Shown here: positions 2,564-15,205 of the stretch, one piece after another
Numbering within the stretch: position 1 is the first letter of the stretch
Layout of the letters: every line of letters begins with the position of its first letter
Source of the DNA: Candidatus Methanophagales archaeon
Lineage (GTDB): Archaea; Halobacteriota; Syntropharchaeia; Alkanophagales; Methanospirareceae
Reading direction: 5' to 3'
DNA: 64,000 bases
Assembly (NCBI GenBank): GCA_017883965.1
Contig: JAFNKG010000002.1
Span: 4,528-68,527, forward strand
Position numbers and translations under genes: made by a program
The notes under the pieces: generated by a model
What the model saw: the letters and a program-made list of their open reading frames with translations, nothing else
Database searches by the model: none
Told to the model about the DNA's origin: nothing

Positions 2564-3034
2564 TCATCCCAACTCGATTATCTCCAGGAAATCAATTCGC
2601 TTGAAATCCGGGTCAAAAGTCGCTATTTTATCAATTCCATAGTGCTTGCACGTTGCTGCGATTAATACATCGTTTGGAAGGAGTTTATATTTTGAAGCCA
2701 ATGAACTCGCAATTTCAACAACTTCTTCGGTTATAATTAAAAATTCTATCTCAAATTCATCTGAAAACTTGGAAAATTCTCCGTAAAGATAAACATAACT
2801 ATCCATGTTTCTTTTCAATTTTTTCAGGCTAAATTTCTCTTCGGTTTCCAAGAACTTTAAAACCATCGCCTTATAAACGACTTCACTGAAAACGACTTCA
2901 TTTATGCAAAGCGATTGGCTAATTATTCTTCCTAAAATCTTTTCTGCTTCGTCGTCACCGGAAAATAAACCGATTATAATGCTCGAATCAAGGAATATCC
3001 GTTCTTTCCGCGACATATTGATAGTATAATTCAT
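2564..3034 (-). CDS. PIN-domain toxin (VapC-like)
   Basis: 156 aa; N-terminal IFLDSSIIIGLF acidic PIN motif; overlaps upstream antitoxin ORF. Confidence 0.6.
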   Translation of the reverse strand: MNYTINMSRKERIFLDSSIIIGLFSGDDEAEKILGRIISQSLCINEVVFSEVVYKAMVLKFLETEEKFSLKKLKRNMDSYVYLYGEFSKFSDEFEIEFLIITEEVVEIASSLASKYKLLPNDVLIAATCKHYGIDKIATFDPDFKRIDFLEIIELG

Positions 3035-3209
3035 TTAGCTCCTCCGAACTGACTTTCGCTTTCAAAATGCCTTTATACTTTCGAAGTCGTTCCTTTAATA
3101 AGTCTTTAATTTCAATCTTAACTTTCGTTCCCTCGGGTATCTCCTTCTCCATCGGCGTTAGCGGCTTAAACACCCCCTTTTCATAAACCACCTCTATTGT
3201 TTTTTGCAT
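2988..3209 (-). CDS. AF2212/DUF104-like antitoxin partner of PIN toxin
   Basis: 73 aa; TIEVVYEKGVFKPLTP motif; 47-bp overlap with PIN gene. Confidence 0.5.
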   Translation of the reverse strand: MQKTIEVVYEKGVFKPLTPMEKEIPEGTKVKIEIKDLLKERLRKYKGILKAKVSSEELNELYYQYVAERTDIP

Positions 3210-3425: not shown

Positions 3426-4532
3426 TCACATTCCTTCGATTATTTTAATTTCTTCTTCGCGAAGCGGATTTTTGGCTTTTGGATTTAAGAATACTTTTTT
3501 CTTAAATTCATGGTCCTCATCATAACCAACAAAAAGCACTGCTGATACTCTTGTGCTAGATTGAAATACCCCTGAATTATCTCTATTTAGATATTCATCA
3601 ATAATTTCACCTGTTTTACTATTATATAAAGTGGTTACCTGTAGTTTTCCGTAAAGTGCGCCTACAATATCATATATCCCTGCATTATGCAATATAACGA
3701 CATTTGGTTCGTTTTTAGTCAATTGCCTATTCTGTTTTTTACGTAGTTTGCTCTTTATCTTATCTATATCGCCAAAACCGATTCTGGTAGGACCTACACA
3801 GTCCACAGATGTATAATCGAGATTATCTCTTGGGTGAAACATAATCTCTGCTGTGGCAGTATGCATCATATCGAAAAGTGGATACTTTTCTGGGTTGGTA
3901 TGAAGGTCACCAGGCTCGTTTATTCCATCGAAATCATACCAATCTTTAGAATCATCAGGTGAAAAATAATAGGTAGTAACAGGCTTTAAAATCCTTTTTT
4001 TCTCAAAATCTGCAATTCTCCCTTTTATTGTTTTTATTAGTGGAAACAAGTCATCTTTTGAAAAACTCTCATTAAAATCAACGATTATTGAGAATCTGGA
4101 CTTTATTTTTTCAATCCTACTATTGATCTCTTTAAAATACATATCTGACTCTTGTTTCTCTTTTGATAGCCATCTATTTGTTATTTCAAAGTTTATCCAT
4201 CGATCGTTAACCTTAACCTTCAAATCGGGTCCCTTATCTGGAAAACAAGGTTCAATGATAACAGGGAGGTCTTTATTACCAAAATACGCTGCCCATTCTA
4301 TTTCAGGTAATGTATCGTAAAACTTGTTTTTTAATTTACCTTCCAAACTTTTCTGTTTACCTTCTCTTTTTGGATCATTTTCAATGATTTGTAAGACTGC
4401 TTCGAGTTCATCATTGAATTTGCTAAGTCTTTCTGATTCCACGTTATTTATCATATCTTCAAAACACTTTACGCCTAAAAATTCTTTCAGCGTGAAGTAT
4501 TTATCCATACAACTCGGCATTTTATCTTTCAC
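3426..4532 (-). CDS. hypothetical protein (368 aa) in TA-rich island
   Basis: Long AT-rich ORF, no recognised motif; C-terminal ...EEEIKIIEGM resembles the end of the remnant ORF at 6171-6362. Confidence 0.45.
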   Translation of the reverse strand: MKDKMPSCMDKYFTLKEFLGVKCFEDMINNVESERLSKFNDELEAVLQIIENDPKREGKQKSLEGKLKNKFYDTLPEIEWAAYFGNKDLPVIIEPCFPDKGPDLKVKVNDRWINFEITNRWLSKEKQESDMYFKEINSRIEKIKSRFSIIVDFNESFSKDDLFPLIKTIKGRIADFEKKRILKPVTTYYFSPDDSKDWYDFDGINEPGDLHTNPEKYPLFDMMHTATAEIMFHPRDNLDYTSVDCVGPTRIGFGDIDKIKSKLRKKQNRQLTKNEPNVVILHNAGIYDIVGALYGKLQVTTLYNSKTGEIIDEYLNRDNSGVFQSSTRVSAVLFVGYDEDHEFKKKVFLNPKAKNPLREEEIKIIEGM

Positions 4533-4636
4533 CTTTCACCACTTTTATCTCCTCTTCTGTCATCCCATACCTGAAATTATCTCATCCTCAAATAATCTTC
4601 AACCGTCAGCTCCACATCCTTTAGAATCTTCTTAAT

Positions 4637-4864
4637 CTACACTTCTACCTCTATCTCCTGAACACCTGCGAATCTGGTAACGGGGAGCTCCTTCTCCTCT
4701 GACCTAAAAGCCTCAAGATGTGCTTCAATTGCCTCCTTCAGATTCGCCATGAGTTCGTCGAGCGTCTTTCCATAGGAGTAACAGCCCTTTAGCGAGGGGA
4801 CGGTGCCAATAAAAACGCCATCCTCATCCTTTTCTATTAATACGATGAAGCTTTGTTTTGCCAT
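4637..4864 (-). CDS. hicB: HicB-family antitoxin (UPF0150)
   Basis: 75 aa; MAKQSFIVLIEKDEDGVFIGTVPSLKGCYSYGKTLDELMANLKEAIEAHLE is a classic HicB N-domain; no hicA found nearby. Confidence 0.65.
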   Translation of the reverse strand: MAKQSFIVLIEKDEDGVFIGTVPSLKGCYSYGKTLDELMANLKEAIEAHLEAFRSEEKELPVTRFAGVQEIEVEV

Positions 4865-4974
4865 TTAGCTTATCTCAAATAAATATTGGTTTTTATATTA
4901 ATTTAATAGTATCGGACTTTTTACCTTTCTCAGTCCTTCTTCTGTGAAGCATATAATATCAAATAAGAGAATGT

Positions 4975-5016
4975 TTTTAGTCACGGTTTTTACTAAGCCC
5001 TTACAGGGCTTGGGCT
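4975..5016 (+). repeat. 42-bp direct repeat (copy 1): 3' end of a DUF5615-type gene plus start of palindromic element E
   Basis: tttagtcacggtttttactaagcccttaca.ggcttg recurs exactly 1000 bp downstream at 5975-6016. Confidence 0.6.
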
Positions 5017-5099
5017 TGCTGAAAACGGTGACGCTGAATGGAAAACCATGCAAAGATTTAAATATGGAAATGCCATTTATATCTTAAAGGTGAGAGGGA

Positions 5100-5309
5100 A
5101 TGGGAGAAATAGAAGCGATATACGAGGAAGGGGTGTTGAGGATTGTAAAGCCGACGAAGATAGAATCTGATGTTGTGACTGTAAGAATATTGAACAGGGA
5201 CGAGATACTGACGGAAGAGGATATGAAAGACACTTTGGAAGCTATGGACGAAAGAGAGAAGGGGCATTATTACAAGTTAGAAGAAGTGTTTGGAACTGTT
5301 GTAATATAA
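5100..5309 (+). CDS. AF2212/DUF104-like antitoxin-family small protein
   Basis: 69 aa; IEAIYEEGVLRIVKP is the same family as ORF 2988-3209; RBS-like ggtgagaggga upstream. Confidence 0.45.
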   Translation: MGEIEAIYEEGVLRIVKPTKIESDVVTVRILNRDEILTEEDMKDTLEAMDEREKGHYYKLEEVFGTVVI

Positions 5310-5368
5310 AGCCATTGCAAATCTTTTTAAAAAGAAAACCCCTAATCTAAATACAAAGGAGGTTTTGT

Positions 5369-5608
5369 ATGTACGAACGTATCTCGATAGACCCGAAAGT
5401 TTGCCACGGAGAAGCGTGCATCAAAGGGACTCGTATTCCTGTACACCTGATTGTTCGCATGTTAGCTAACGGGGACACAATGGAAGAACTCCTCGAAGAT
5501 TATCCCTCGTTAGAACGTGAGGATATTCTCGCTTGCCTGGATTACGCTGCGGCCCTTGCCGAAGAGCAGGTTACGCCCATTGAAGTAGTAGCAAGAGAAA
5601 AAGGATGA
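5369..5608 (+). CDS. DUF433 antitoxin-like protein
   Basis: 79 aa; PKVCHGEACIKGTRIPVHLIVRMLANGDTMEELLEDYPSLEREDILACLDYAA matches the DUF433 signature. Confidence 0.7.
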   Translation: MYERISIDPKVCHGEACIKGTRIPVHLIVRMLANGDTMEELLEDYPSLEREDILACLDYAAALAEEQVTPIEVVAREKG

Positions 5609-5995
5609 AAATCTTAGTGGACGAGAATATTCCCTTGACGACCGTGCGAGTTGCGTGTGCAGGGTCACGATGTGTTAGACATTCGGGGAACAACAGATGA
5701 AGGAATACCTGATTATGCTCTCTGGGATATGGCTCAGCGAGAGGAACGGTTGCTAATCACAACGGACAAAGGATTTGTACACAATCGTGAACAACCACAT
5801 CATGGTATCTTGATTATCCGCCTTCGGCAGCCAAATAGGCGAAAAATTGACGAACGAGTGATGCAAGCTATCGCTCAGTTTAGGGCAGCCGAATGGCTTG
5901 GACTGCTGGTCGTGATGCGAGACAGTACTCAAAGCATATGGCGGGTAAGTAAAGGCGAAAACAAAAAGGATGAGTTTAGTCACGGTTTTTACTAA
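5595..5995 (+). pseudogene. DUF5615 (PIN-like toxin partner of DUF433) with apparent frameshift near 5640-5651
   Basis: ATG at 5595 encodes family-typical MKILVDENIPLTTVRV then stops; remainder LRVQGHDVLDIRGT...ITTDKGF continues in +1 frame from 5651 (TTG) to 5995. Confidence 0.5.
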
Positions 5996-6039
5996 GCCCT
6001 TACATGGCTTGAGGGGTCGTGGGGCAGAGCCCCACAAAG
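5993..6039 (+). repeat. palindromic repeat element E (REP-like), intergenic copy
   Basis: taagcccttacatggcttgaggggtcgtggggcagagccccacaaag; two hairpins (AAGCCCT-TAC-AGGGCTT; GGGGC-AGA-GCCCC); 45/47 identical to reverse complement of 33597-33645 inside tiaS. Confidence 0.65.
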
Positions 6040-6084
6040 GTAAAAAAGTTGTTTTCAAAACTTTCCGTTGAACCAAAGATAGAG

Positions 6085-6165
6085 ATAATCTGCGTATTTC
6101 AAGAGTTCTGCGGCTTCGCCAAGCCAACTACTTTGCCGAAACTTCTATGTTTCAGTTCCTTTTTA
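6085..6165. repeat. ~80-bp repeat R, copy 2
   Basis: See 3315-3390. Confidence 0.6.
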
Positions 6166-6170
6166 CCCTC

Positions 6171-6362
6171 TCATAAATGGATGATTTTTTCAGCTTGATT
6201 TGACACTCCAAACACATCTGCTCTGAGGCTGTTTTTTCCTCTCTTCAACGATAAATCAGTTCCAACGTATTCTGAAAGACAATTCTTTTGGGGCTTCAAA
6301 AATTTTTCCGCTGTCTTTGTTGAGATTTTGAATTGTGAGACGGCCTCTAAAAACGAGGGCAT
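6171..6362 (-). pseudogene. chimeric gene remnant: att-like repeat sequence fused to a C-terminal fragment resembling the 368-aa gene
   Basis: 63-aa ORF ending ...AEKIIHL* (cf. ...EEIKIIEGM* of 3426-4532); contains the 6308-6347 direct repeat; followed by repeat R exactly as at 3426. Confidence 0.35.
6308..6347 (+). repeat. att-like direct repeat, left copy
   Basis: ccgctgtctttgttgagattttgaattgtgagacggcctc vs 9376-9413 ccgttttttgttaagattttgaattgtgggacggcctc; right copy sits ~20 bp from the tRNA 3' end. Confidence 0.55.
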
Positions 6363-6388: not shown

Positions 6389-7321
6389 TTAATCCGTACC
6401 CAATCTCTTTTTCACTTCATTTTTGATGTGAGAATATCCTAACGCCAATCCTTTTACGATTAGATTTTGATTCGAAGTAAATATTGCACATATTTCCTTT
6501 GGTTCTGTTATTGTTCCCGTCATAACATCCATTATAAGTTCTAAATTGAATTTTTCTTCAGCTTTTAGTCGATTATATTGTGTTAACCATCCGAAAGCAT
6601 TAGCGAAGAGAGCAACAATTGCTAATATCAACAAGGATATCTTATAATCGTCTATCCCCGTTTTTCCAAATCCATAGGTATAGTAAAATATCAATACCGA
6701 TGCTATAAAAAGAGCAGCTAAAAATGGGTATTTTAATAATTCAATAGTTTTCATTCTACCTGAATCTCTTTTGCTTTTCCGAAGCTTGACATTTTCATAT
6801 AAAAAATCGCTTGCAAAAATAAAAGCGAGTATTGCAAAAAATAATTTGGAATTTGTGTTTATTATCAAAGCCAAGCTTATGAGGAGTAGAATAAATAAAA
6901 GTAAGATATTGATACTCCATTTTTTTGCTAATTCAATCACTATATTTATTATAAGTACGCCGAACAGCACAAAAACAAAAACTAAAAATATTATTTTTGT
7001 TAAATGAACATCTCTTCCATCGAACATCCCCAACAAAGTCCAAAATAACACAGCAATGAATACGATACTGCTCCCTATCATCGTTAAATATCGGTTGGAG
7101 TTTTTTTGAATTAGATCAACTCTACGCCACAAAAGAGACAGCCATTCATCTGTATTAAAAGGGGTATTTTTCTCACAGGATATATCTATTCCAGATTTAA
7201 TAATGGGGTCAATTTCTTCAGAAAAATTCAAATCTTTCAACTGTCGTATTGCTTCTCGTATCTCCAAATTTTTTAGACTTTTCATCGCTTCTTCGATGTT
7301 TGACGAATTTCTATAACTCAA
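6389..7321 (-). CDS. polytopic membrane protein of unknown function, downstream partner of OLD-family nuclease
   Basis: 310 aa, ~6-7 hydrophobic helices, soluble N- and C-terminal segments; same strand and 186 bp downstream of the OLD gene. Confidence 0.5.
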   Translation of the reverse strand: MSYRNSSNIEEAMKSLKNLEIREAIRQLKDLNFSEEIDPIIKSGIDISCEKNTPFNTDEWLSLLWRRVDLIQKNSNRYLTMIGSSIVFIAVLFWTLLGMFDGRDVHLTKIIFLVFVFVLFGVLIINIVIELAKKWSINILLLFILLLISLALIINTNSKLFFAILAFIFASDFLYENVKLRKSKRDSGRMKTIELLKYPFLAALFIASVLIFYYTYGFGKTGIDDYKISLLILAIVALFANAFGWLTQYNRLKAEEKFNLELIMDVMTGTITEPKEICAIFTSNQNLIVKGLALGYSHIKNEVKKRLGTD

Positions 7322-7414: not shown

Positions 7415-7510
7415 ATGAACAAAAAGCAAGGAATATTAATCGGAATCGCTTTGTTGCTTCTCTCAGACAAATTAAATTCTCTACTTTCTAATAGGTCTCT
7501 CATGCCTTAA
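7415..7510 (+). CDS. small hydrophobic peptide ORF (31 aa), paralog of 9326-9388
   Basis: MNKKQGILIGIALLLLSDK... vs MDKKKGLMFGLALVLLSVFC; lies between the OLD and membrane genes on the opposite strand. Confidence 0.25.
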   Translation: MNKKQGILIGIALLLLSDKLNSLLSNRSLMP

Positions 7511-9156
7511 AACTCTTTTATTTCCTCAAATATTTGCTCAATAAACTCCTTAAACTCCTTTTCACTATCTATTTCTTCAGGGGTTATTTCTTCGGCGACT
7601 TTCCTTGCCAGTTGTTCCTTCCACCATTTTTTCTCTAAAATACCATTGAGTTTTTCTACCGTTTGACCCTTCGGTACATCTTCCTCTCTTAATTCTTTCC
7701 CTTTTCGTTGTTTCACAAATTCAACTATTAAGTGTCGGGGATAGAAATCCTCTATGTCTCCACTTTCCCAAATTATTATATCCTCCTCTTTTATGCCATT
7801 TTTAATAAGTTTTCCTTTGTGTTTTATGCCACTCTTATCAAAGAGGAGACGTATGGGCAAAGGAACGTTTTGACATACTTCTCTACACAGTTTATAATTT
7901 GGTTCCTCCTTTGTATCACCACCAGCATCGATAATGGCAATTCCCTCCTCTCCAAAGCTCTTTTCCAACTTCCCTGCTACGCCTCGTAAGAATATGCTAT
8001 CACTTAGCCCTTCCACAATGAGAATGAAATTTGAAAGAAGGAAATCTCCTGGGGTAATTCCCATTTGGAAGAATTTGCTACCAAGTTCTTCTTTATCTGT
8101 CACTCTTTTAATCTTGGTACTCCCTTCTTCTTGCCATATAAACCATACATTCGAAAGCGAGCCGCTATCTATAACAAATGGGGAATGTGTAGTGATGAAG
8201 AATTGCTTTTTTTGTTTCTCTGAAATTTCTTTAATCCTCTTCATTAACTTTTTGATGAGTTTTGGATGAAGATGATTTTCCGGCTCTTCAATGAGAACTA
8301 TGTCTGCAGAGGTATTCTCGATTTCATGAAGGAGATGTAAGATCATCTGCACCCCTCCACCTTTTAAGTATGGAGGAATTGGAACCGTTTCCTCTTTAAT
8401 ATTTTTGTCAAATACGAAGCTTTCTCCTACAACACTCATGGAATCATCAACAAATTGCTTCTTGTCTTTTGTATAGCTACTCCATTTTTTTCGGCGAGCT
8501 GGGACAATCTTGCTTGCATTAGATTTAATAATTTCTTCTGTACGTTCAGGGATAAGAGGATCCCTTTTGAAAAAATCTTCACTTTTGGCGGGTCTATCTC
8601 GAACCGCAGGGATAAACTTAATTTTACTCTGTAGTAAATTTTCTATCGTTTGAGTGACTGAAGTGGAATCTATATTTTTACCCGATTCGTCTGTGAAAAC
8701 ATCCTCTAATTGACCATTTTCCATCATGAACTTAGGATAATTTGCTTCTTTTGACCCAAATAAGGGAGGGAATCCTTCTCCTTCAATTGTTTTCCAATAA
8801 AAGCTGAACTCTTTATTTATCCCAACTTCTAAGGAAATAGATAAGTCACCTCTGGATACAAAAGAGGATGAAGAATCTTTTTGGATGGCTTCCCTATCTT
8901 CATGATTTAAATTTAAATCTGCCTTGATCTTAATCGGTTGATCGGCTGAGGGCTCTGCACCAAAACATAAATATTCATACCCTTCTATTTTTAGATAGGG
9001 CTTATTCTTTTTTTCTCCAAGAAGTCTTACTGCTTCGAGTAGAAAAGATTTACCTGCATCGTTTTCTCCAATTAAAATAACTAAATTAGAAATATCTTTC
9101 ATAGAAATGTCTTCAAAGCACCTATAGTTATTCACTTTTAACTTCTTGATATGCAT
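7507..9156 (-). CDS. OLD-family ATP-dependent endonuclease (ABC-type ATPase + Toprim), GajA/OLD-like
   Basis: 549 aa; Walker A LILIGENDAGKSFLLEA, ABC signature/D-loop LIEEPENHLHP, Walker B region; C-terminal Toprim motifs LIVEGLSDSIFL and IIDAGGD. Confidence 0.75.
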   Translation of the reverse strand: MHIKKLKVNNYRCFEDISMKDISNLVILIGENDAGKSFLLEAVRLLGEKKNKPYLKIEGYEYLCFGAEPSADQPIKIKADLNLNHEDREAIQKDSSSSFVSRGDLSISLEVGINKEFSFYWKTIEGEGFPPLFGSKEANYPKFMMENGQLEDVFTDESGKNIDSTSVTQTIENLLQSKIKFIPAVRDRPAKSEDFFKRDPLIPERTEEIIKSNASKIVPARRKKWSSYTKDKKQFVDDSMSVVGESFVFDKNIKEETVPIPPYLKGGGVQMILHLLHEIENTSADIVLIEEPENHLHPKLIKKLMKRIKEISEKQKKQFFITTHSPFVIDSGSLSNVWFIWQEEGSTKIKRVTDKEELGSKFFQMGITPGDFLLSNFILIVEGLSDSIFLRGVAGKLEKSFGEEGIAIIDAGGDTKEEPNYKLCREVCQNVPLPIRLLFDKSGIKHKGKLIKNGIKEEDIIIWESGDIEDFYPRHLIVEFVKQRKGKELREEDVPKGQTVEKLNGILEKKWWKEQLARKVAEEITPEEIDSEKEFKEFIEQIFEEIKEF

Positions 9157-9413: not shown

Positions 9414-9432
9414 CCATATATAAAAATAAAAA

Positions 9433-9512
9433 GGGAGATGGCGGGAGTCGAACCCGCGCCACCTGCTTTTAAGGCAGGGTCCTCACCATGAGGACAGGGA
9501 GGGTTCATCTCC
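9433..9512 (-). tRNA. atypical tRNA or tRNA-like gene; anticodon candidate UAA (Leu) but class-I variable loop and ~8 extra nt in the D region
   Basis: Minus strand: acceptor GGAGATG/CATCTCC, T-arm GCGGG-TTCGACT-CCCGC (canonical), anticodon arm CCTGC-CTTAAAA-GCAGG, 4-nt variable loop; 27 nt between acceptor and anticodon stem (normal ~19) including perfect hairpin GTCCTCA-TGG-TGAGGAC; TATA-like atataataaattatat just upstream. Confidence 0.5.
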
Positions 9513-9700: not shown

Positions 9701-10528
9701 TTATGACCGTCTAAAAATCTCCCATATCTTCGCACGATCAGTTTCCACTCTATCGTATTCGCGAAGGCGTTCTACGCTTTGAACTCCAGCAGAAATCGAT
9801 GCTCGAACCACGATTCCGAAGCAACGACGACGAAACTCCTTACCCAACTCGTTAAGATGCTCTCGTAGATAATAACTAGCTGCCTCGGTGCCAAGTGTTC
9901 CATATCCGCCTATAAGAAAGGCAACTCCAGGTTTTCCTGTCCTTCGGGGATTCCGAGCTTTTAAAACTATTCCGTATCCAAAACCTTCTTCACGAGGAAT
10001 GATTTCATTTGTTCGTGCATCATGTATATTCATATTATCCATTCTGTAGAAAACTTGCTCCATTAATTCATAAAAATCGAGAGATTTCTGAGACTGCCCT
10101 CCGATGACAATAATATGTCCATTCCACTCGCCATTATCCTCTGACATTCGAGTGATTCGTATATTCCTCTTTTTCCCAGCTTGCCCTAAAACATTAAGAC
10201 TATCCGCCAGAGCTGTTGCATCAACATCAGGCCATAAATCTCGTACATTCGGCACGCGTCCAATACCCACTCGCGGAACATTTTCTAATAAAGGCGTTGT
10301 TCCTGGGGTTACATCTTGAATAAATAAGTGGCGAATGAAGATTAGGCATTGCTCATCGTTATTTGCCACATCTCCTAAAATCAACATAGGTGGTCTAGAC
10401 GTGACCCAATACAGGTAGGCTTTGCGTGCAGAACCTATAATGCCTAAAAAAATACTGCTTATGATCGTTCCTAAGATAGCACCAATCCACAAATCATATG
10501 AAAGGCCAAGAATTTGCATCTCAATCAT
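9701..10528 (-). CDS. membrane-anchored protein with Rossmann-like GGxGTxxE motif (possible SLOG/LOG-like domain), cassette 1
   Basis: 275 aa; N-terminal TM helix; IVIGGQSQKS and FLIGGYGTLGTEAASYY resemble LOG/SLOG nucleotide-binding motifs (weak). Confidence 0.4.
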   Translation of the reverse strand: MIEMQILGLSYDLWIGAILGTIISSIFLGIIGSARKAYLYWVTSRPPMLILGDVANNDEQCLIFIRHLFIQDVTPGTTPLLENVPRVGIGRVPNVRDLWPDVDATALADSLNVLGQAGKKRNIRITRMSEDNGEWNGHIIVIGGQSQKSLDFYELMEQVFYRMDNMNIHDARTNEIIPREEGFGYGIVLKARNPRRTGKPGVAFLIGGYGTLGTEAASYYLREHLNELGKEFRRRCFGIVVRASISAGVQSVERLREYDRVETDRAKIWEIFRRS

Positions 10529-10564
10529 ATTTCTTTATCCTATATTGATTGATAGCCATACTAT

Positions 10565-10723
10565 TTATAGCGATTGCTCTACTATTTCTATCTCCTCCGT
10601 CAGCCCGTACAAATCATAAACCAACCGGTCAATCTGCGCATCAACAATCTTTATCTGCCGCTCGTAAAGCTCTTTATCTCTTTCCATTCTCGCCCCGTGG
10701 TATTTTTTCTGGAATTCGAGCAT
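10565..10723 (-). CDS. 52-aa ORF encoding a type IIG RM / N6-MTase C-terminal tail fragment (copy 2)
   Basis: MLEFQKKYHGARMERDKELYERQIKIVDAQIDRLVYDLYGLTEEIEIVEQSL*; ~90% nt identity to 13095-13245; ends 37 bp before the start of cassette 1. Confidence 0.35.
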   Translation of the reverse strand: MLEFQKKYHGARMERDKELYERQIKIVDAQIDRLVYDLYGLTEEIEIVEQSL

Positions 10724-11570
10724 TGTTTGGTTTCTTTGTTATATATCCTATTTCGGTAAAAATGTATAGAAATACTACAACTAGTCCCGTGATGAACAAA
10801 AATAGAACGACAGGTTTCCAAACGAGGTGTTGCTCTGGTGTTATCGGTAGTAACCCCAATGGGAGTATAACCCCAACTATTGTGAAATAAATAAGAGAGA
10901 AGATAATACTTCTGAAATGTTCGGGCAATATTATCTGGCTAACTTGGTGCTGTAATTCCTGTATTTTAGCATTTTTATAGCTGATTTCTTTATTATTTTC
11001 CTCTATTATTTTTTGATTTTCATTATAACGGTCATGTTTATGTAGATTAGCAAATGGTGCTGGGATAGTGGGTAAATCTGGTAATTGTATGCCTGCCAGC
11101 AATCCTGCAAGCTCGGATATATGTTTTGATGGTATCTCTTCTTCCTTTTCTAAGCGAATTTCTTTTATCACCGAAGTATATTTTTCTTTGAATATAGAAA
11201 TAAATTTTTCATCGAGAATCCTGATCCTATTTTCTTTAAGTAACTCTTTTAGCATCTCATCAGCAGTAGGCAAATTTTCTAAATCCAATTTCGGTTTTTT
11301 AGCTCGTAGAAAATTATTGACACTTTCTTCATCTTCTTTCCTGTCTTCTTCCTCATCTTTTCTATTAACTTCATTAATGTATTCTAAAAGAGGAGCATTT
11401 TGACGTTCTAATTCCTTTATTTCTGCATTGATTTCATTAATTCTATTCTCTATTCGGCTTCTTTCACTCGCCATCATCATGACCCTACTTGTAACTAATG
11501 CACCTATTAGTCCAACTATGACTGCTGCAGATTGTGCTATTGCAGAATAAAACCAATTTGGGTCATTCAT
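10674..11570 (-). CDS. membrane protein with coiled-coil region, cassette 2
   Basis: 298 aa; N-terminal and C-terminal TM segments, central KE-rich coiled coil; last 19 codons are encoded out-of-frame by the duplicated RM-tail segment. Confidence 0.45.
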   Translation of the reverse strand: MNDPNWFYSAIAQSAAVIVGLIGALVTSRVMMMASERSRIENRINEINAEIKELERQNAPLLEYINEVNRKDEEEDRKEDEESVNNFLRAKKPKLDLENLPTADEMLKELLKENRIRILDEKFISIFKEKYTSVIKEIRLEKEEEIPSKHISELAGLLAGIQLPDLPTIPAPFANLHKHDRYNENQKIIEENNKEISYKNAKIQELQHQVSQIILPEHFRSIIFSLIYFTIVGVILPLGLLPITPEQHLVWKPVVLFLFITGLVVVFLYIFTEIGYITKKPNNARIPEKIPRGENGKR

Positions 11571-11710
11571 TTTTCTTCAACCGCCTTCACCTCCTCCTCC
11601 GTCAGCCTGTACAAATCATAAACCCGCCTGTCGATCTGCCTATCTGTCGCTTCAATCTCTTTTTCAATCCGCTCCTTTTTCCCAACCTCTTCCGGACATT
11701 CCTCCATCAT
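11567..11710 (-). CDS. 47-aa ORF encoding a type IIG RM / N6-MTase C-terminal tail fragment (copy 3)
   Basis: MMEECPEEVGKKERIEKEIEATDRQIDRRVYDLYRLTEEEVKAVEEK*; stop overlaps the cassette 2 start codon (ATGA). Confidence 0.3.
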   Translation of the reverse strand: MMEECPEEVGKKERIEKEIEATDRQIDRRVYDLYRLTEEEVKAVEEK

Positions 11711-11739
11711 CTCATCTATGATCCTCTTATTCTCCTCTT

Positions 11740-13071
11740 TTATATTAAGCCAAACATCTTTAAAATCGCTATAAAACCTTCATAATTTGTTACCGCTGTT
11801 ATAATCATCAAGAGGACCATCACGAGGGTAAGCCCAAATATCCATTTTGTTAACCTTTTGACATCTTTCTGAAGTCCAACATTGGCATATGCAGTTACTG
11901 AATCAACAAGATCGTTTGTGTATCGCAGTCCTATATTTTGTTTTTCATCTAATTCCCTGAGCTTTTTGTCACATCTCTCTATTTGATACTCAGCATTCAA
12001 ATACAACTCTTTGAAGAAGGAAGAAACAGTTTGAGTGTCTACCCATTTCATGTGCGCTACATCATTAGGATGATCTAATTCTTTCTGTTCCTGCAAGCAT
12101 GGCTTATGATCTTCTAACAGGTCTCCTGATGAGTCTAATTCATCCTTCACTTGTGACGAGAACTCAAAGAATTCCATTTTTTCATCTATCAAATTGTTAT
12201 ATTGATTCATCAATTCGTTAAGGGTACTCGAATTCTGTGTCAGCACTTCTATACTCTCGCTTCTTTTGAATTCACGTAGTTTCGATCTAGATTTGTTGAT
12301 TTTGTTTTCCCACTCATTTAATTGTTTGATTCGGAAGAAAGAACAGTGAAACGGTTTAATCAAAGCTAACAAAGTTTCCAAACCGTCAAGCATGATTGGA
12401 GCTATTAAATTTGGTTTATTTTCAAATCCGATTATTGTAAATTTGGTGTAATCATTAAAAAACACCTGCGGGGAAACTATAGAATCACCGGTACAAGACA
12501 TTAATTTGGGGATAAACTTGATTGCATTTAGGAGGTTGGAATTTTTATCTAACCAATCTTCCAGTTTCTCATCGGCAACAATAGGATGTGCCCATGACTC
12601 AATCCCTTTGAATCCAAGCACTTCATCGAGACGTGCAATCCATAGAATGATACCATTGTGCCGCTCACTTGTATCGGTTGAAAAGATCCCGGCAATGAGG
12701 GGTGTTATATAGTGCTCAATCTCCTCTTGCGCCTTCTCTAAAAAGTTCTGCCCATCAATAGGCGTTTTTTTATGTAAATTTTCAATAACCTCTTCTTTTA
12801 ATTCCCCATAACAAGTTACATCATAAATATGGCGATGCTGTCGAATTACATATATATTTATCGACTCAAAGCAATCGGGAATTGGAAATTTGGGATTGAT
12901 AATACCCCCATATTCCTCTATAACATATGCAGTGCCACCATCCAATCTTTGAGGTGCCATTTTTTGGGGGGATTTTCCTTCGAATAATATTTTCAGTTTA
13001 TCATCCAAACTTGGTTTCTGCTTCGAATCAACGAAATCTACCAAAGCAATACCAAGGCTTTTTATTTTCAT
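11740..13071 (-). CDS. hypothetical protein with C-terminal TM anchor, cassette 3
   Basis: 443 aa; no recognised catalytic motifs; C-terminal hydrophobic helix (WIFGLTLVMVLLMIITAV); start overlaps the stop of the upstream RM-remnant ORF (ATGA). Confidence 0.45.
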   Translation of the reverse strand: MKIKSLGIALVDFVDSKQKPSLDDKLKILFEGKSPQKMAPQRLDGGTAYVIEEYGGIINPKFPIPDCFESINIYVIRQHRHIYDVTCYGELKEEVIENLHKKTPIDGQNFLEKAQEEIEHYITPLIAGIFSTDTSERHNGIILWIARLDEVLGFKGIESWAHPIVADEKLEDWLDKNSNLLNAIKFIPKLMSCTGDSIVSPQVFFNDYTKFTIIGFENKPNLIAPIMLDGLETLLALIKPFHCSFFRIKQLNEWENKINKSRSKLREFKRSESIEVLTQNSSTLNELMNQYNNLIDEKMEFFEFSSQVKDELDSSGDLLEDHKPCLQEQKELDHPNDVAHMKWVDTQTVSSFFKELYLNAEYQIERCDKKLRELDEKQNIGLRYTNDLVDSVTAYANVGLQKDVKRLTKWIFGLTLVMVLLMIITAVTNYEGFIAILKMFGLI

Positions 13072-13646
13072 CTCTCCATTCCTTCGATAACTTTTATTTC
13101 TTCATCGCTCAGCCCATACAAATTATAAACCAACCTGTCAATCTGCGTATCAACAATCTTTATCTGCCGTTCATAAAGCTCTTTATCTCGCTCCATTCTC
13201 GTCTCGTGGTATTTCTTCTGCAATTCGAGCATGTTGTCCACTAAGGGAACGAGTTTATCGTGCTGGGCTTTTTCTTCTGGGTTTGAGGAGTCTATCGTGC
13301 TCAGTTGATATGACGGGCTAACGTCCTCTTTTATGTTCACCGCAGGTTTCTTCGCTTCGACAAAGAACTTCCTTTGACCGCCAATCCTGAAACTGTAATC
13401 CGGTGCTCTGGTCGAACGCCCTACTTTTATTGCATCCTCCAGAACAACCTCCTTGTATTGCTCTGCATAGCCCTGTTTATTGCTCACGTTCCAGCCAAGC
13501 GCTTCAAAGAACGGGTCAATGAATTCTCGTCTTACCTTTGCTTCGTTATATGCCGATTTTTTATAAACGTCAATATTATCACGGAATCGCTCAACGAGTT
13601 CTTCAATCGTTTGTCTTGCTTGTTCTTTCATTTTGGCTTCAAGCAT
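13068..13646 (-). CDS. internally deleted restriction-enzyme remnant: HSDR_N-type PD-ExK nuclease domain fused directly to N6-MTase C-terminal tail
   Basis: 192 aa; EAKVRREFIDPFFEALGW...APDYSFRIGGQRKFFVEAKKP (PD...EAK nuclease motif) then ...QIDRLVYNLYGLSDEEIKVIEG (typical type IIG/BREX MTase tail); ~750 aa of helicase/MTase/TRD expected in between are absent. Confidence 0.6.
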   Translation of the reverse strand: MLEAKMKEQARQTIEELVERFRDNIDVYKKSAYNEAKVRREFIDPFFEALGWNVSNKQGYAEQYKEVVLEDAIKVGRSTRAPDYSFRIGGQRKFFVEAKKPAVNIKEDVSPSYQLSTIDSSNPEEKAQHDKLVPLVDNMLELQKKYHETRMERDKELYERQIKIVDTQIDRLVYNLYGLSDEEIKVIEGMER

Positions 13647-13702: not shown

Positions 13703-15205
13703 TTACAAATTCTTCGCAGAACTTTCCAGCAAGCACAGAAAAACATAAACCGGAACAATAGCAATATCCCCCTTTGTATCAAACTCTTTTTTGCTCAATA
13801 TCAATTTTGGCATGTTAATGGCGGCGACATCCTTAAATGACACTCTCGGCTTGTATTTCACCTCTATTCCGAGATATTCACCATTTTCACGTTGGTAAAC
13901 AAAATCCAATTCTTTCCTCGCATCATAATAAAACCATAGAAATCTGTCCGCAGGCTTAATTACCGGAACCTCCTTAACTCTCGCTAAATGATTACAAACA
14001 ATGCCTTCCACAAGCAAAGAAACCTTATCTTCATCCAGCATGAATTCTTCGGAATACCGGTAGCCATCTTTACCATGCAGCCAGCTATTGAACGAATGAA
14101 ATATGAGCGAGTCCGTGAAATATATCTTCTTCATCGCTTTGTATCTTACGCGCTTCTTCGCGAAATCGTATGAATAGAGCACCTGAACTAAAAAATTGTC
14201 TTCCATTAATCGCAGGTAATCTATGATTGTGGGGTGCGATATAGGCTCCTCTATCTCCACAGCCAATCCTCTAAAATCACTTCTCGACCCAAAAATCTTT
14301 ATTATGGCGCTTACCACTTGCTGCATCGTTCTATCACTCTTACCCTGCCTTAAAGCATCTTTCGTCACCAGTTCGATGAACCGCTCATAGAACTCAGGCT
14401 TGACCCTCTCCTGCTCCTCTGCCTGGATATTTCTCAGATAATCGTTGATTACAGAAGGAAACCCGCCTGTTTTCATGTAAATATTGAAAAGAAAACTTAA
14501 ACTGGCGTTAAACTTCAACATACGGCTGAAAACAGGCACAATTTTTTCTAACGGCTCTTCCAAGTTTATTTTGCTGGAGTTTAGATTCTCAGGTAAAATC
14601 TTGAGTTCTTTTTCTAATTGTCTATCCGCTGTTAAATAATCGGGCCGCCGGCAGACTTGAAGCACGAAATCACGGAAACTTAAAGGTCTCAAGAAATACC
14701 TGTTCCCCTCTATATTTCTTCCAATGAGTTCTTGCGTATGCACTTTAATCCCAAAGGGGGAGCCTGTAAATAAAATCACAACCCTATCAAATCTATCACT
14801 GTCCGCTATCCCTTTTATTTCCAGAACCCAATCCTTAACAAAGTTTATTTCATCCAAAAATATGTATATTCTCTCATGCTCCGCCAATTTATCCATTAAG
14901 AACTCCAATACCTTCCTTAGCTCTCTTCTTGATACCAGCGTTTCACAGGAGAAATAGCAGATAGAATCCGGGTTTACACCATCATCGCGCATCAACCTCA
15001 TAATCGTTTTCTTTATTTCCGTAGTTTTACCCACTTGCCTTAGACCATGAATTGCGTAGATGTTTGACGTTTCGAGGTCGATATTCCTTCTTCCAAACCT
15101 CACCGGTGCTACTCTGTATTCATTTAGGATTTTATCGTAATGCTCGAATTCCATGCCAAATCGCCACCATGTATTTTGTTCAACAATCTTACTTATTTCC
15201 ACCAT
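13703..15205 (-). CDS. archaeal AAA+ ATPase with C-terminal DUF4143 (PD-ExK-like) domain
   Basis: 500 aa; Walker A GLRQVGKTT, Walker B IYIFLDEINF; C-terminal D...E.K block (LDFVYQRENGEYLGIEVKYK). Confidence 0.65.
   Translation of the reverse strand: MVEISKIVEQNTWWRFGMEFEHYDKILNEYRVAPVRFGRRNIDLETSNIYAIHGLRQVGKTTEIKKTIMRLMRDDGVNPDSICYFSCETLVSRRELRKVLEFLMDKLAEHERIYIFLDEINFVKDWVLEIKGIADSDRFDRVVILFTGSPFGIKVHTQELIGRNIEGNRYFLRPLSFRDFVLQVCRRPDYLTADRQLEKELKILPENLNSSKINLEEPLEKIVPVFSRMLKFNASLSFLFNIYMKTGGFPSVINDYLRNIQAEEQERVKPEFYERFIELVTKDALRQGKSDRTMQQVVSAIIKIFGSRSDFRGLAVEIEEPISHPTIIDYLRLMEDNFLVQVLYSYDFAKKRVRYKAMKKIYFTDSLIFHSFNSWLHGKDGYRYSEEFMLDEDKVSLLVEGIVCNHLARVKEVPVIKPADRFLWFYYDARKELDFVYQRENGEYLGIEVKYKPRVSFKDVAAINMPKLILSKKEFDTKGDIAIVPVYVFLCLLESSAKNL

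Follow-up and report, generated by a model that had tools for sequence, protein, structure and literature searches.

In a genome assembly of a Candidatus Methanophagales archaeon (contig JAFNKG010000002.1), genes for different membrane proteins lie one behind the other on the minus strand, each preceded by a copy of the same 3' end of a type IIG restriction-modification (RM) gene. This raises the question of how one gene end, here termed tail, came to stand in front of several different genes. The stretch that was analyzed, in the following called the window, comprises 64,000 nucleotides (nt), and all coordinates are positions within it. The region is probably an array of defence-type cassettes, which was built by recombination and is anchored on the conserved 3' block of type IIG RM genes. 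This reading builds on the architecture and polarity of the arrays, the conservation profile of the enzyme gene, fixed junctions between cassettes and tails, a combinatorial cassette order and one chimeric tail. The tails and genes of the array are listed below, with tails detached from an enzyme gene designated as orphan tails or relics.

13068-13646, minus strand: 192-amino-acid (aa) open reading frame (ORF) with the sequence of an internally deleted type IIG enzyme
13068-13303, minus strand: tail 1, 3' part of the 192-aa ORF (nhmmer E 1.7e-73, profile positions 98-324)
11740-13071, minus strand: 443-aa ORF, cassette 1, family K4
11567-11715, minus strand: tail 2, orphan, reads as a 47-aa ORF at 11567-11710 (nhmmer E 1.3e-17)
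10674-11570, minus strand: 298-aa ORF, cassette 2, family K2
10565-10727, minus strand: tail 3, orphan, reads as a 52-aa ORF at 10565-10723 (nhmmer E 2.6e-51, profile positions 167-327)
9701-10528, minus strand: 275-aa ORF, cassette 3, family K77
4522-4570, minus strand: tail remnant 4, degenerate, about 49 nt (...YGMTEEEIKVVKGER, stop), abuts the start of the 368-aa gene (nhmmer E 0.0018)
3426-4532, minus strand: 368-aa ORF, cassette 4, family K19, beyond the segment described originally

Tail repeats and the 192-aa ORF

The tails were located with a nucleotide profile built from the 3'-terminal 330 nt of 40 full-length relatives (nhmmer). As had been predicted, three co-oriented segments code for the same methyltransferase tail, each before a different membrane-protein gene. 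Two of the copies were expected to be about 90% identical; the repeat finder aligned 10593-10723 to 13102-13232 with 89% identity over 131 nt, and a 51-nt repeat core is present in three copies with 84-86% identity. Because PADLOC matches were obtained at both ends of the 192-aa ORF and the profile E-values of tails 1 to 3 are low, the tail similarity is true homology to a type IIG gene, and a low-complexity origin could be ruled out. Furthermore, remnant 4 upstream of the 368-aa ORF extends the array beyond the three tails described before; it aligns with the full-length tail-to-cassette junction of another locus (L039) and with the relics of two more (L099, L128).

The tail ORFs had been described as ending at or overlapping the next gene. 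This holds for the 192/443 and 47/298 gene pairs, which share an ATGA stop/start overlap, whereas tail 3 and the 275-aa gene are separated by a gap of 36 nt. The 298-aa ORF itself terminates out of frame within tail 3, as was seen from the sequence before, although about 17 codons rather than 19 are contributed by the repeat (ending in PEKIPRGENGKR). At 90% identity, the 52-aa tail ORF falls into a cluster that comprises 58 stand-alone tail ORFs with a length of 40-55 aa. The conserved "LTEEEV/I" codons of the tail read ...ACGGAGGAGGAGGTGA..., a strong Shine-Dalgarno-like string (e.g., 11575-11605, minus strand), which in tail 2 precedes the start codon of the cassette by 16 nt; whichever gene comes next may obtain its ribosome-binding site from the tail.

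In the 192-aa ORF, an HSDR_N-type PD-(D/E)xK nuclease domain (about aa 1-116; Pfam HSDR_N 2.2e-9) is joined straight to the conserved C-terminal tail. The PADLOC profile REase_MTase_IIG matches the N-terminus with 2e-43 (profile positions 6-113) and the C-terminal tail with 1.6e-6. Full-length relatives have 950-1040 aa and contain HSDR_N, then Eco57I/N6_Mtase/MmeI_Mtase and then TaqI_C, of which neither the N6-adenine methyltransferase domain nor the TaqI_C-like target-recognition domain was found in the 192-aa ORF by the Pfam scan. Judged by its sequence, the ORF is an in-frame internal-deletion remnant of an Eco57I/MmeI-like enzyme of about 1000 aa and not an enzyme of the type IIG class, and the fusion of HSDR_N to the tail of a deleted enzyme is thereby confirmed by the PADLOC matches at both ends and by junction comparison with full-length genes. 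The deletion of 2.4 kb, by which the methylase and specificity domains were lost, joins "...VSPSYQL" of the nuclease to "(R)TIDFSNP..." of the tail start at position 13299/13300 with a microhomology of at most 1-2 nt.

The same junction is present in the syntenic contig L003 (6687-7262; NfeD and AP_endonuc_2 upstream; 85% aa identity), and therefore the deletion is old or was spread by recombination. Between these two orthologues, the ratio of nonsynonymous to synonymous substitution rates (dN/dS) is about 0.23 in both halves, and the PD...EAK motif has been preserved. This would mean either a functional mini-protein or an import of the differences by gene conversion from intact paralogues. 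A further contig, L106, was rejected as a syntenic relative of the window, since it represents a different locus.

In-frame fusions of nuclease and tail with 160-320 aa and varied deletion end-points were observed in many unrelated lineages (L004-L008; P0051, P0056, P0064, P0068, P0083 and others). Of three contexts of such short fusions, one has the stop codon 3 nt upstream of a DUF3800 gene, and in the other two the stop codon overlaps the start of a DUF6883 gene, with DUF4926 next. The in-frame deletions may recur if translation must reach the tail stop to express the next gene, and a protein-based search favours in-frame cases.

Recurrence of the arrays and their cassettes

Metagenome contigs and one genome per GTDB species were scanned with the 52-aa tail, which resulted in 154 loci. 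After addition of the window and of seven contigs that had been fetched around other proteins, 162 loci were compared; the set is partly redundant, as the same region occurs in different samples (e.g., L051/L125, L006-L008), and relics reaching into the hypervariable domain may escape detection. In total, 66 of the 162 loci carry two to five tails, always on one strand. In 19 of these arrays, the first tail is part of a complete enzyme gene, and in another 19 it is part of a long ORF that runs into the contig edge. A short frame truncated by the edge carries it in 12 arrays, and the other 16 have a short or orphan head, so that the first gene, where it can be judged, is usually the enzyme. All 103 later tails are short relics, and the N-terminal nuclease domain occurs once per array and always at the head. 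Intact enzymes were found in related loci, where they head the same kind of array with repeated tails.

The longest arrays contain five tails each (L099, L120, L127). One of them, L127, consists of five relics with no enzyme within the fetched region and is headless like the window. Arrays were also found in two single-cell assemblies of anaerobic methanotrophic (ANME) archaea of the ANME-1 group (L110, L148), and the window layout recurs in the independent assemblies L001 and L002 as well as in a 13.5-kb Logan contig encoding the 187-aa, 47-aa and ATPase proteins. The hosts are mainly ANME-1, the group of the window (Methanophagales metagenome assembly of 134 kb), but also ANME-2 and other Methanosarcinales, Syntrophoarchaeum, Argoarchaeum and Ethanoperedens, with several such loci per genome. 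Some contigs are binned, with uncertainty, as Desulfobacteria, Stahlbacteria, Atribacterota and others. The same enzyme family is present in metagenome-assembled genomes (MAGs) of Stahlbacteria (L097), Atribacterota (L151) and Desulfobacteria (L138), the first two of which also carry the cassette family of the 443-aa protein, and their tails are closely related to archaeal ones; these occurrences reflect either recent cross-domain transfer in methane-oxidising communities or mis-binning.

The 178 ORFs adjacent to tails were grouped into 78 families. In 43 of the 178 cases, the ORF overlaps the tail stop codon by 4 nt (ATGA), a spacing more frequent than any other. The larger families were mostly found behind enzymes as well as behind relics, with six and six cases for K0, five and three for K1, three and five for K2, and five and two for K4, respectively. 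Among the domains of the representatives are SIR2_2, TIR_2, CAP12/Pycsar TIR, HEPN (LA2681, RiboL-PSP), Schlafen/AlbA_2, OLD/GajA, PIN, MazF, DUF3800, DUF6414, DUF2254, radical SAM and PycTM, as well as the PADLOC candidate families PDC-M04A, PDC-S28, PDC-S65, PDC-S70 and PD-Lambda-4. About half or more of the 65 scanned representatives, including the three of the window, have no Pfam domain. The analogy to toxin/immunity cassettes drawn in the original prediction is not borne out, as the cassettes are single genes, many of them with anti-phage effector domains, and no variable toxin domain is attached to the repeat. Likewise, membrane proteins are no defining trait of the cassettes.

For the 443-, 298-, 275- and 368-aa proteins and for a neighbouring protein of 310 aa, searches in Pfam, PADLOC, NCBIfam and PHROGs revealed only sub-threshold noise. 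The 443-aa protein (K4), for which a family-profile sequence search also gave no match in the PDB, has a coiled-coil C-terminal half and a C-terminal transmembrane (TM) helix. Only 25 clusters of close homologues were found, and its AlphaFold2 model, with a predicted local distance difference test score (pLDDT) of 57, was too poor for a structure search. In five loci the family stands directly behind a long type IIG frame (L075, L097, L114, L118, L151), which is complete in L097, L114 and L118. An alignment of six members of the family of the 298-aa protein (K2) revealed an N-terminal TM helix, a coiled coil that varies in length and a C-terminal pair of TM helices; in L014, L040 and L112 the family follows an enzyme, in other loci a relic. 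The 368-aa protein (K19) shares 85% identity with the gene directly behind the complete type IIG enzyme of L039 and 77% with the cassette behind a relic in L099.

In the 275-aa protein (K77), a long TM helix at the N-terminus is combined with an alpha/beta domain that has an invariant GGxGT motif. In the predicted model (pLDDT 90.6), the alpha/beta domain resembles BcsB and glycoside-hydrolase N-terminal domains. The motif reads GGYGTLGTE with glycines invariant in 34 homologues, but the motif alone does not define the LOG/SLOG family, and an assignment to LOG/SLOG was rejected since the fold search gave no LOG match. Members of this family occur as stand-alone genes elsewhere. The three membrane proteins of the window may act in defence.

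Probable recombination between tails and rival explanations

A conservation profile was calculated from a non-redundant set of 37 full-length genes. Over aa 1-550 (nuclease, linker and methylase), the nucleotide identity is about 0.8; it drops to 0.35-0.46 in the specificity domain (aa 550-925) and reaches 0.82-0.87, the highest value in the gene, in the last approximately 75 aa. The tail is the right-hand conserved arm beside a hypervariable segment and therefore constitutes portable homology among alleles, paralogous loci and organisms. Conserved arms around a variable segment are known to permit the allelic exchange of type IIG specificity domains (PMC2853133).

The relics have a length of about 70-250 nt, corresponding to about 23 to 82 codons, and 47 of 159 orphan tails (30%) contain a stop codon or frameshift in the 44-codon core. 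The ratio of nonsynonymous to synonymous differences (pN/pS) is 0.28 between a relic and the nearest enzyme tail and 0.25 between enzymes; since these values are equal, the differences of the relics are allelic and were not built up under a new constraint. The relics are decaying DNA and not small genes, contrary to the functional tail ORFs originally proposed. It is unlikely that the arrays are functional guard operons, in which cassette effectors are restrained by the type IIG enzyme in the manner of PrrC/EcoprrI, the tail peptide serves for docking and the orphan tail ORFs regulate. One docking interface for 78 unrelated families is implausible, the disrupted and unequally long orphan tails do not suit such a role, and members of the 275-aa family stand alone elsewhere, even though RM-guard systems are established (PMC12707154), the ATGA overlap is the commonest spacing, effector-type domains are frequent among the cassettes and the 192-aa ORF has kept its low dN/dS since the shared deletion.

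The positions at which relics begin were compared on the tail profile. While enzyme tails align from profile position 2, the matches of orphan tails start at positions 83-262 in 146 of 157 cases and further upstream in the other 11, with peaks at 164-169, 128-129 and 229-230. The reading frame of a relic closes near the start of its match, and the cassette ORF upstream of it stops at a distance of 3-270 nt from the relic or, in 14 of 65 cases from 8 families, inside it. As the relics start at no single site, yet nearly all within the conserved block, random deletion in a 3-kb gene cannot yield this pattern.

The junctions themselves are fixed within families. In all loci, one and the same nucleotide marks the K2-to-relic junction, also in the case of a terminal, decayed relic, and the distance from cassette to next relic is -28 nt for K12, -21 nt for K8 and -94 to -103 nt for K4 in six of seven loci. 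What follows is variable: K4 is succeeded by K2, K31, K59 or K32, K1 by K25, K10, K5 or K0, K2 by K35, K43 or K77, and K12 by K10, K8 or K11. Furthermore, the last codons of the tail co-vary with the downstream cassette, as seen for K2 and in a pooled test (0.837 vs 0.787 identity).

Tails 1 and 2 are more closely related to tails of other loci than to those of the window. The nearest relatives of tail 1 are tails before K4 elsewhere (92.5% in L127, 88.7% in L097), and those of tail 2 are relics after K4 elsewhere. The 5' part of tail 2 (about 40 nt, profile columns 195-255) shares 97-98% identity with K4-linked relics (L097, L118) and only 64-78% with K2-linked tails, whereas its 3' end (about 35 nt, columns 290-327) fits best to the K2-linked tails of L032, L040 and L048 with 86-91%; the relics of L097 and L118 and tail 2 lack the same stretch of the profile. 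By these identities, tail 2 is demonstrably chimeric and combines a K4-linked relic with a K2-linked tail. The idea that a shared block drives cassette switching is thus supported by the mosaic found on aligning the tails for gene conversion, by the K2 junctions and by the combinatorial neighbours, and the alternative put forward with it, in which a decayed RM locus repeatedly took up insertions, amounts to another view of the same process.

It is quite improbable that the arrays are a graveyard of tandem RM genes, in which unrelated random deletions of complete enzyme-plus-partner modules left tails by chance. Internal deletions are common (the window, L003, L106 and the many N-terminus-plus-tail proteins of 160-320 aa in other lineages), and the relics decay, but no array contains a second full-length gene or N-terminal remnant past the first tail, and none of the 103 later tails lies in a frame of at least 300 codons. 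In addition, relic starts fall nearly all into the last approximately 250 nt of the 3-kb gene, the same cassette-to-relic junction precedes different cassettes in different loci, and tail 2 is chimeric.

A build-up of the arrays by recombination could have proceeded as follows. The gene just downstream of the enzyme often starts on the enzyme stop codon (ATGA), and each examined family would have been captured once, by a rare illegitimate event, leaving a family-specific junction into a truncated tail on the 3' side of the cassette. The unit of tail 3' end, cassette and tail 5' relic could then be inserted, deleted or re-paired by homologous recombination in any tail, with paralogous loci or incoming DNA as exchange partners. 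The outcome would be co-oriented enzyme-cassette-relic-cassette-relic arrays, in which the non-functional relics decay and the cassettes are presumably co-expressed with the enzyme. The window would represent a late stage with a dead head enzyme, contiguous K4, K2 and K77, and K19 further downstream behind its 49-nt remnant.

No conserved recombinase family was detected in the flanks of the 66 arrays by ORF clustering of the fetched flanks, which included no recombinase profile search. The three tails of the window fold no better than shuffled sequences (z 0.27, -0.40 and 0.37), so that attC-like hairpins were discarded, and viral carriage of tails was not indicated by IMG/VR, where the 10 pattern matches encode no relative. 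As neither a flanking recombinase, nor a tail fold, nor viral carriage was found, the simplest agent is general homologous recombination, presumably of the RadA/RecA type.

These findings also bear on an integron-like site-specific system with a dedicated recombinase acting on a site in the tail, analogous to attI/attC. Its plausibility comes from the co-oriented single-gene cassettes with a repeat on the 3' side and an expressed partner at the head, and from integron cassettes, which are known to store defence genes (bioRxiv 10.1101/2024.07.02.601686). It is nevertheless very improbable: no conserved gene family was found by clustering of the fetched flanks, the junction positions vary among families over about 180 nt, the tail strands fold like shuffles (z -0.4 to +0.4), and the exchange tracts resemble ordinary homology mosaics. 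Least probable of all are short-read chimeric joins at the repeated tail as the origin of the arrays or cassette orders, since, although the tails are 80-90% identical repeats of 100-250 nt and many contigs end at or near a tail (e.g., L003), joining at shared sequence cannot create a junction from a cassette 3' end into the middle of a tail, the window layout is present in independent assemblies (L001, L002 and the Logan contig), and arrays occur in single-cell genomes (L110, L148).

Some points weigh against an array of defence-type cassettes built by homologous recombination. The three cassette proteins of the window match no known defence family. The comparison loci are nearly all short-read metagenome or MAG contigs, in which mis-joins at the shared repeat could inflate the apparent shuffling, and the flank search has the limit given above. 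Homologous recombination does not explain the origin of the first cassette-to-tail junction of each family. Moreover, the 5' parts of tails sharing an upstream cassette are not more alike than the background in the pooled comparison (0.804 vs 0.830), the K4 case being clear.

Beyond the recombination-built array, a wider reading can be put forward tentatively, and with somewhat more doubt than confidence: the enzyme tail could be a universal, integrase-free landing pad, and the arrays an exchangeable store of second-line defence genes, possibly common to ANME archaea and associated bacteria, as a homology-driven analogue of integrons. If this were true, any gene with a tail relic could enter, leave and move in any genome that has such an enzyme.

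Related systems and genomic neighbourhood

Integron arrays and the orphan modules of polymorphic toxins are the closest functional analogues, and insertion with long target duplication together with specificity-domain swapping at RM loci as the closest mechanistic ones; none of the compared systems fits as a family. Like in chromosomal integrons, co-oriented cassettes each with a 3' recombination element were found, which are mostly single and promoter-proximally ordered, with combinatorial order and defence cargo. Unlike in integrons, there is no hairpin-forming attC. In the clustering of the fetched flanks, no integrase turned up. The repeat is instead a relic of a coding 3' end, the exchange looks homology-driven, the platform is a restriction enzyme gene and the hosts are mainly archaea.

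In cdiA and rhs loci, silent downstream modules keep a short piece of the conserved sequence of the main gene, which allows recombination next to the expressed gene. A homology block shared with the main gene permits module exchange in the tail arrays as well, as indicated by the chimeric tail and the combinatorial neighbours. Unlike in cdiA/rhs, the conserved piece comes from the extreme end of the enzyme, and a separate gene downstream forms the variable unit. Toxin/immunity pairs are also absent, the main gene does not encode a toxin-delivery protein, and the relics hold the conserved tail only.

In insertion with long target duplication, an RM insert is flanked by direct repeats of more than 30 bp (tens to hundreds of bp), which duplicate the target (Furuta, Abe and Kobayashi 2010, PMC2853133). 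Type IIG genes carry a variable specificity domain between conserved arms and show allelic swapping (PMC2853133). The relics of about 70-250 nt similarly duplicate the enzyme 3' end as direct repeats. While RM genes are the cargo in the published cases, here the end of the RM gene is the repeated target, and other defence genes form the cargo, in up to five reshuffled iterations. In defence islands and hotspots, suicide or abortive-infection effectors, such as PrrC in EcoprrI, and toxin-antitoxin modules are found clustered with RM genes (PMC12707154), and in variable hotspots of ANME-1, structural variants affect adenine methyltransferase genes (PMC13385816). As far as these reports could be read, none of them describes orphaned enzyme tails between cassettes or a role of such tails as recombination handles.

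As in the original prediction, no published description of this layout was found in a full-text literature search, which included the 2026 study of ANME-1 hotspots, and absence from the searchable literature is not proof of novelty; the arrangement is apparently an undescribed variant of cassette-array and defence-hotspot organisation. It would show at the sequence level how defence islands are assembled and reshuffled without mobile-element machinery, and the arm enabling specificity-domain swaps would double as a handle for exchanging neighbouring immune genes. The position next to a tail relic would be a cheap guilt-by-association marker, which yields 78 candidate defence families from uncultured archaea. 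It also offers an explanation for the breaks of ANME-1 assemblies at such loci, and some of the structural variants reported in "adenine methyltransferase" genes of ANME-1 hotspots may be due to it. The cross-domain occurrences, if true and not binning errors, would represent a gene-flow channel within methane-oxidising consortia.

The neighbouring features of the window array are the following.

13703-15205, minus strand: AAA_14 + DUF4143 ATPase, PADLOC candidate system PDC-S01, upstream neighbour outside the tail array
9430-9512, minus strand: tRNA-like element of 83 nt between the array and the OLD gene
7507-9156, minus strand: OLD-family nuclease (AAA_15 + TOPRIM, GajA-like), downstream neighbour
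6389-7321: 310-aa multi-TM protein
5369-5995: DUF433 and DUF5615 genes
4637-4864: HicB-like gene
2564-3209: gene pair resembling VapBC by eye

The order in the direction of transcription is ATPase, 192-, 443-, 47-, 298-, 52- and 275-aa ORFs, tRNA-like element and OLD nuclease. The DUF4143 ATPase-nuclease, which was said to follow the array, is thus located upstream of it. In the syntenic contig L003, an ATPase_2/DUF234 ATPase (4796-6190) is found in its place, and therefore the position upstream of the enzyme is variable, too.

A local enrichment of known or candidate anti-phage genes, as in defence islands and hotspots, was found in the arrays and in the window, where the defence-type genes comprise the GajA-like OLD nuclease, PDC-S01 and domains typical of toxin-antitoxin modules. 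The OLD nuclease has no obvious GajB partner and shares 22-29% identity with family K16, whose members are cassettes behind tail relics in L073, L097 and L111; no tail remnant was detected next to it with the tail nucleotide profile. Because K19 with its tail remnant lies beyond the OLD nuclease and the toxin-antitoxin-type genes, the region of about 3.4-15.2 kb is a single variable defence hotspot between housekeeping genes. These are SecD and a nitroreductase-like ORF on one side, with translations read by eye, and AP_endonuc_2 and NfeD on the other.

For the tRNA-like element, no tRNA was called by ARAGORN, and Rfam gave only a sub-threshold tmRNA-like match (E 3.3e-8). The element has an 8-bp acceptor stem, a canonical T-arm (GGGUUCGACUCCC) and a 5-bp anticodon stem with the anticodon loop CUUAAAA, the normal D-arm is replaced by a 7-bp hairpin, and the folding z-score is -4.25. 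It could be an aberrant tRNA, the remnant of an integration site or a tRNA-like element.

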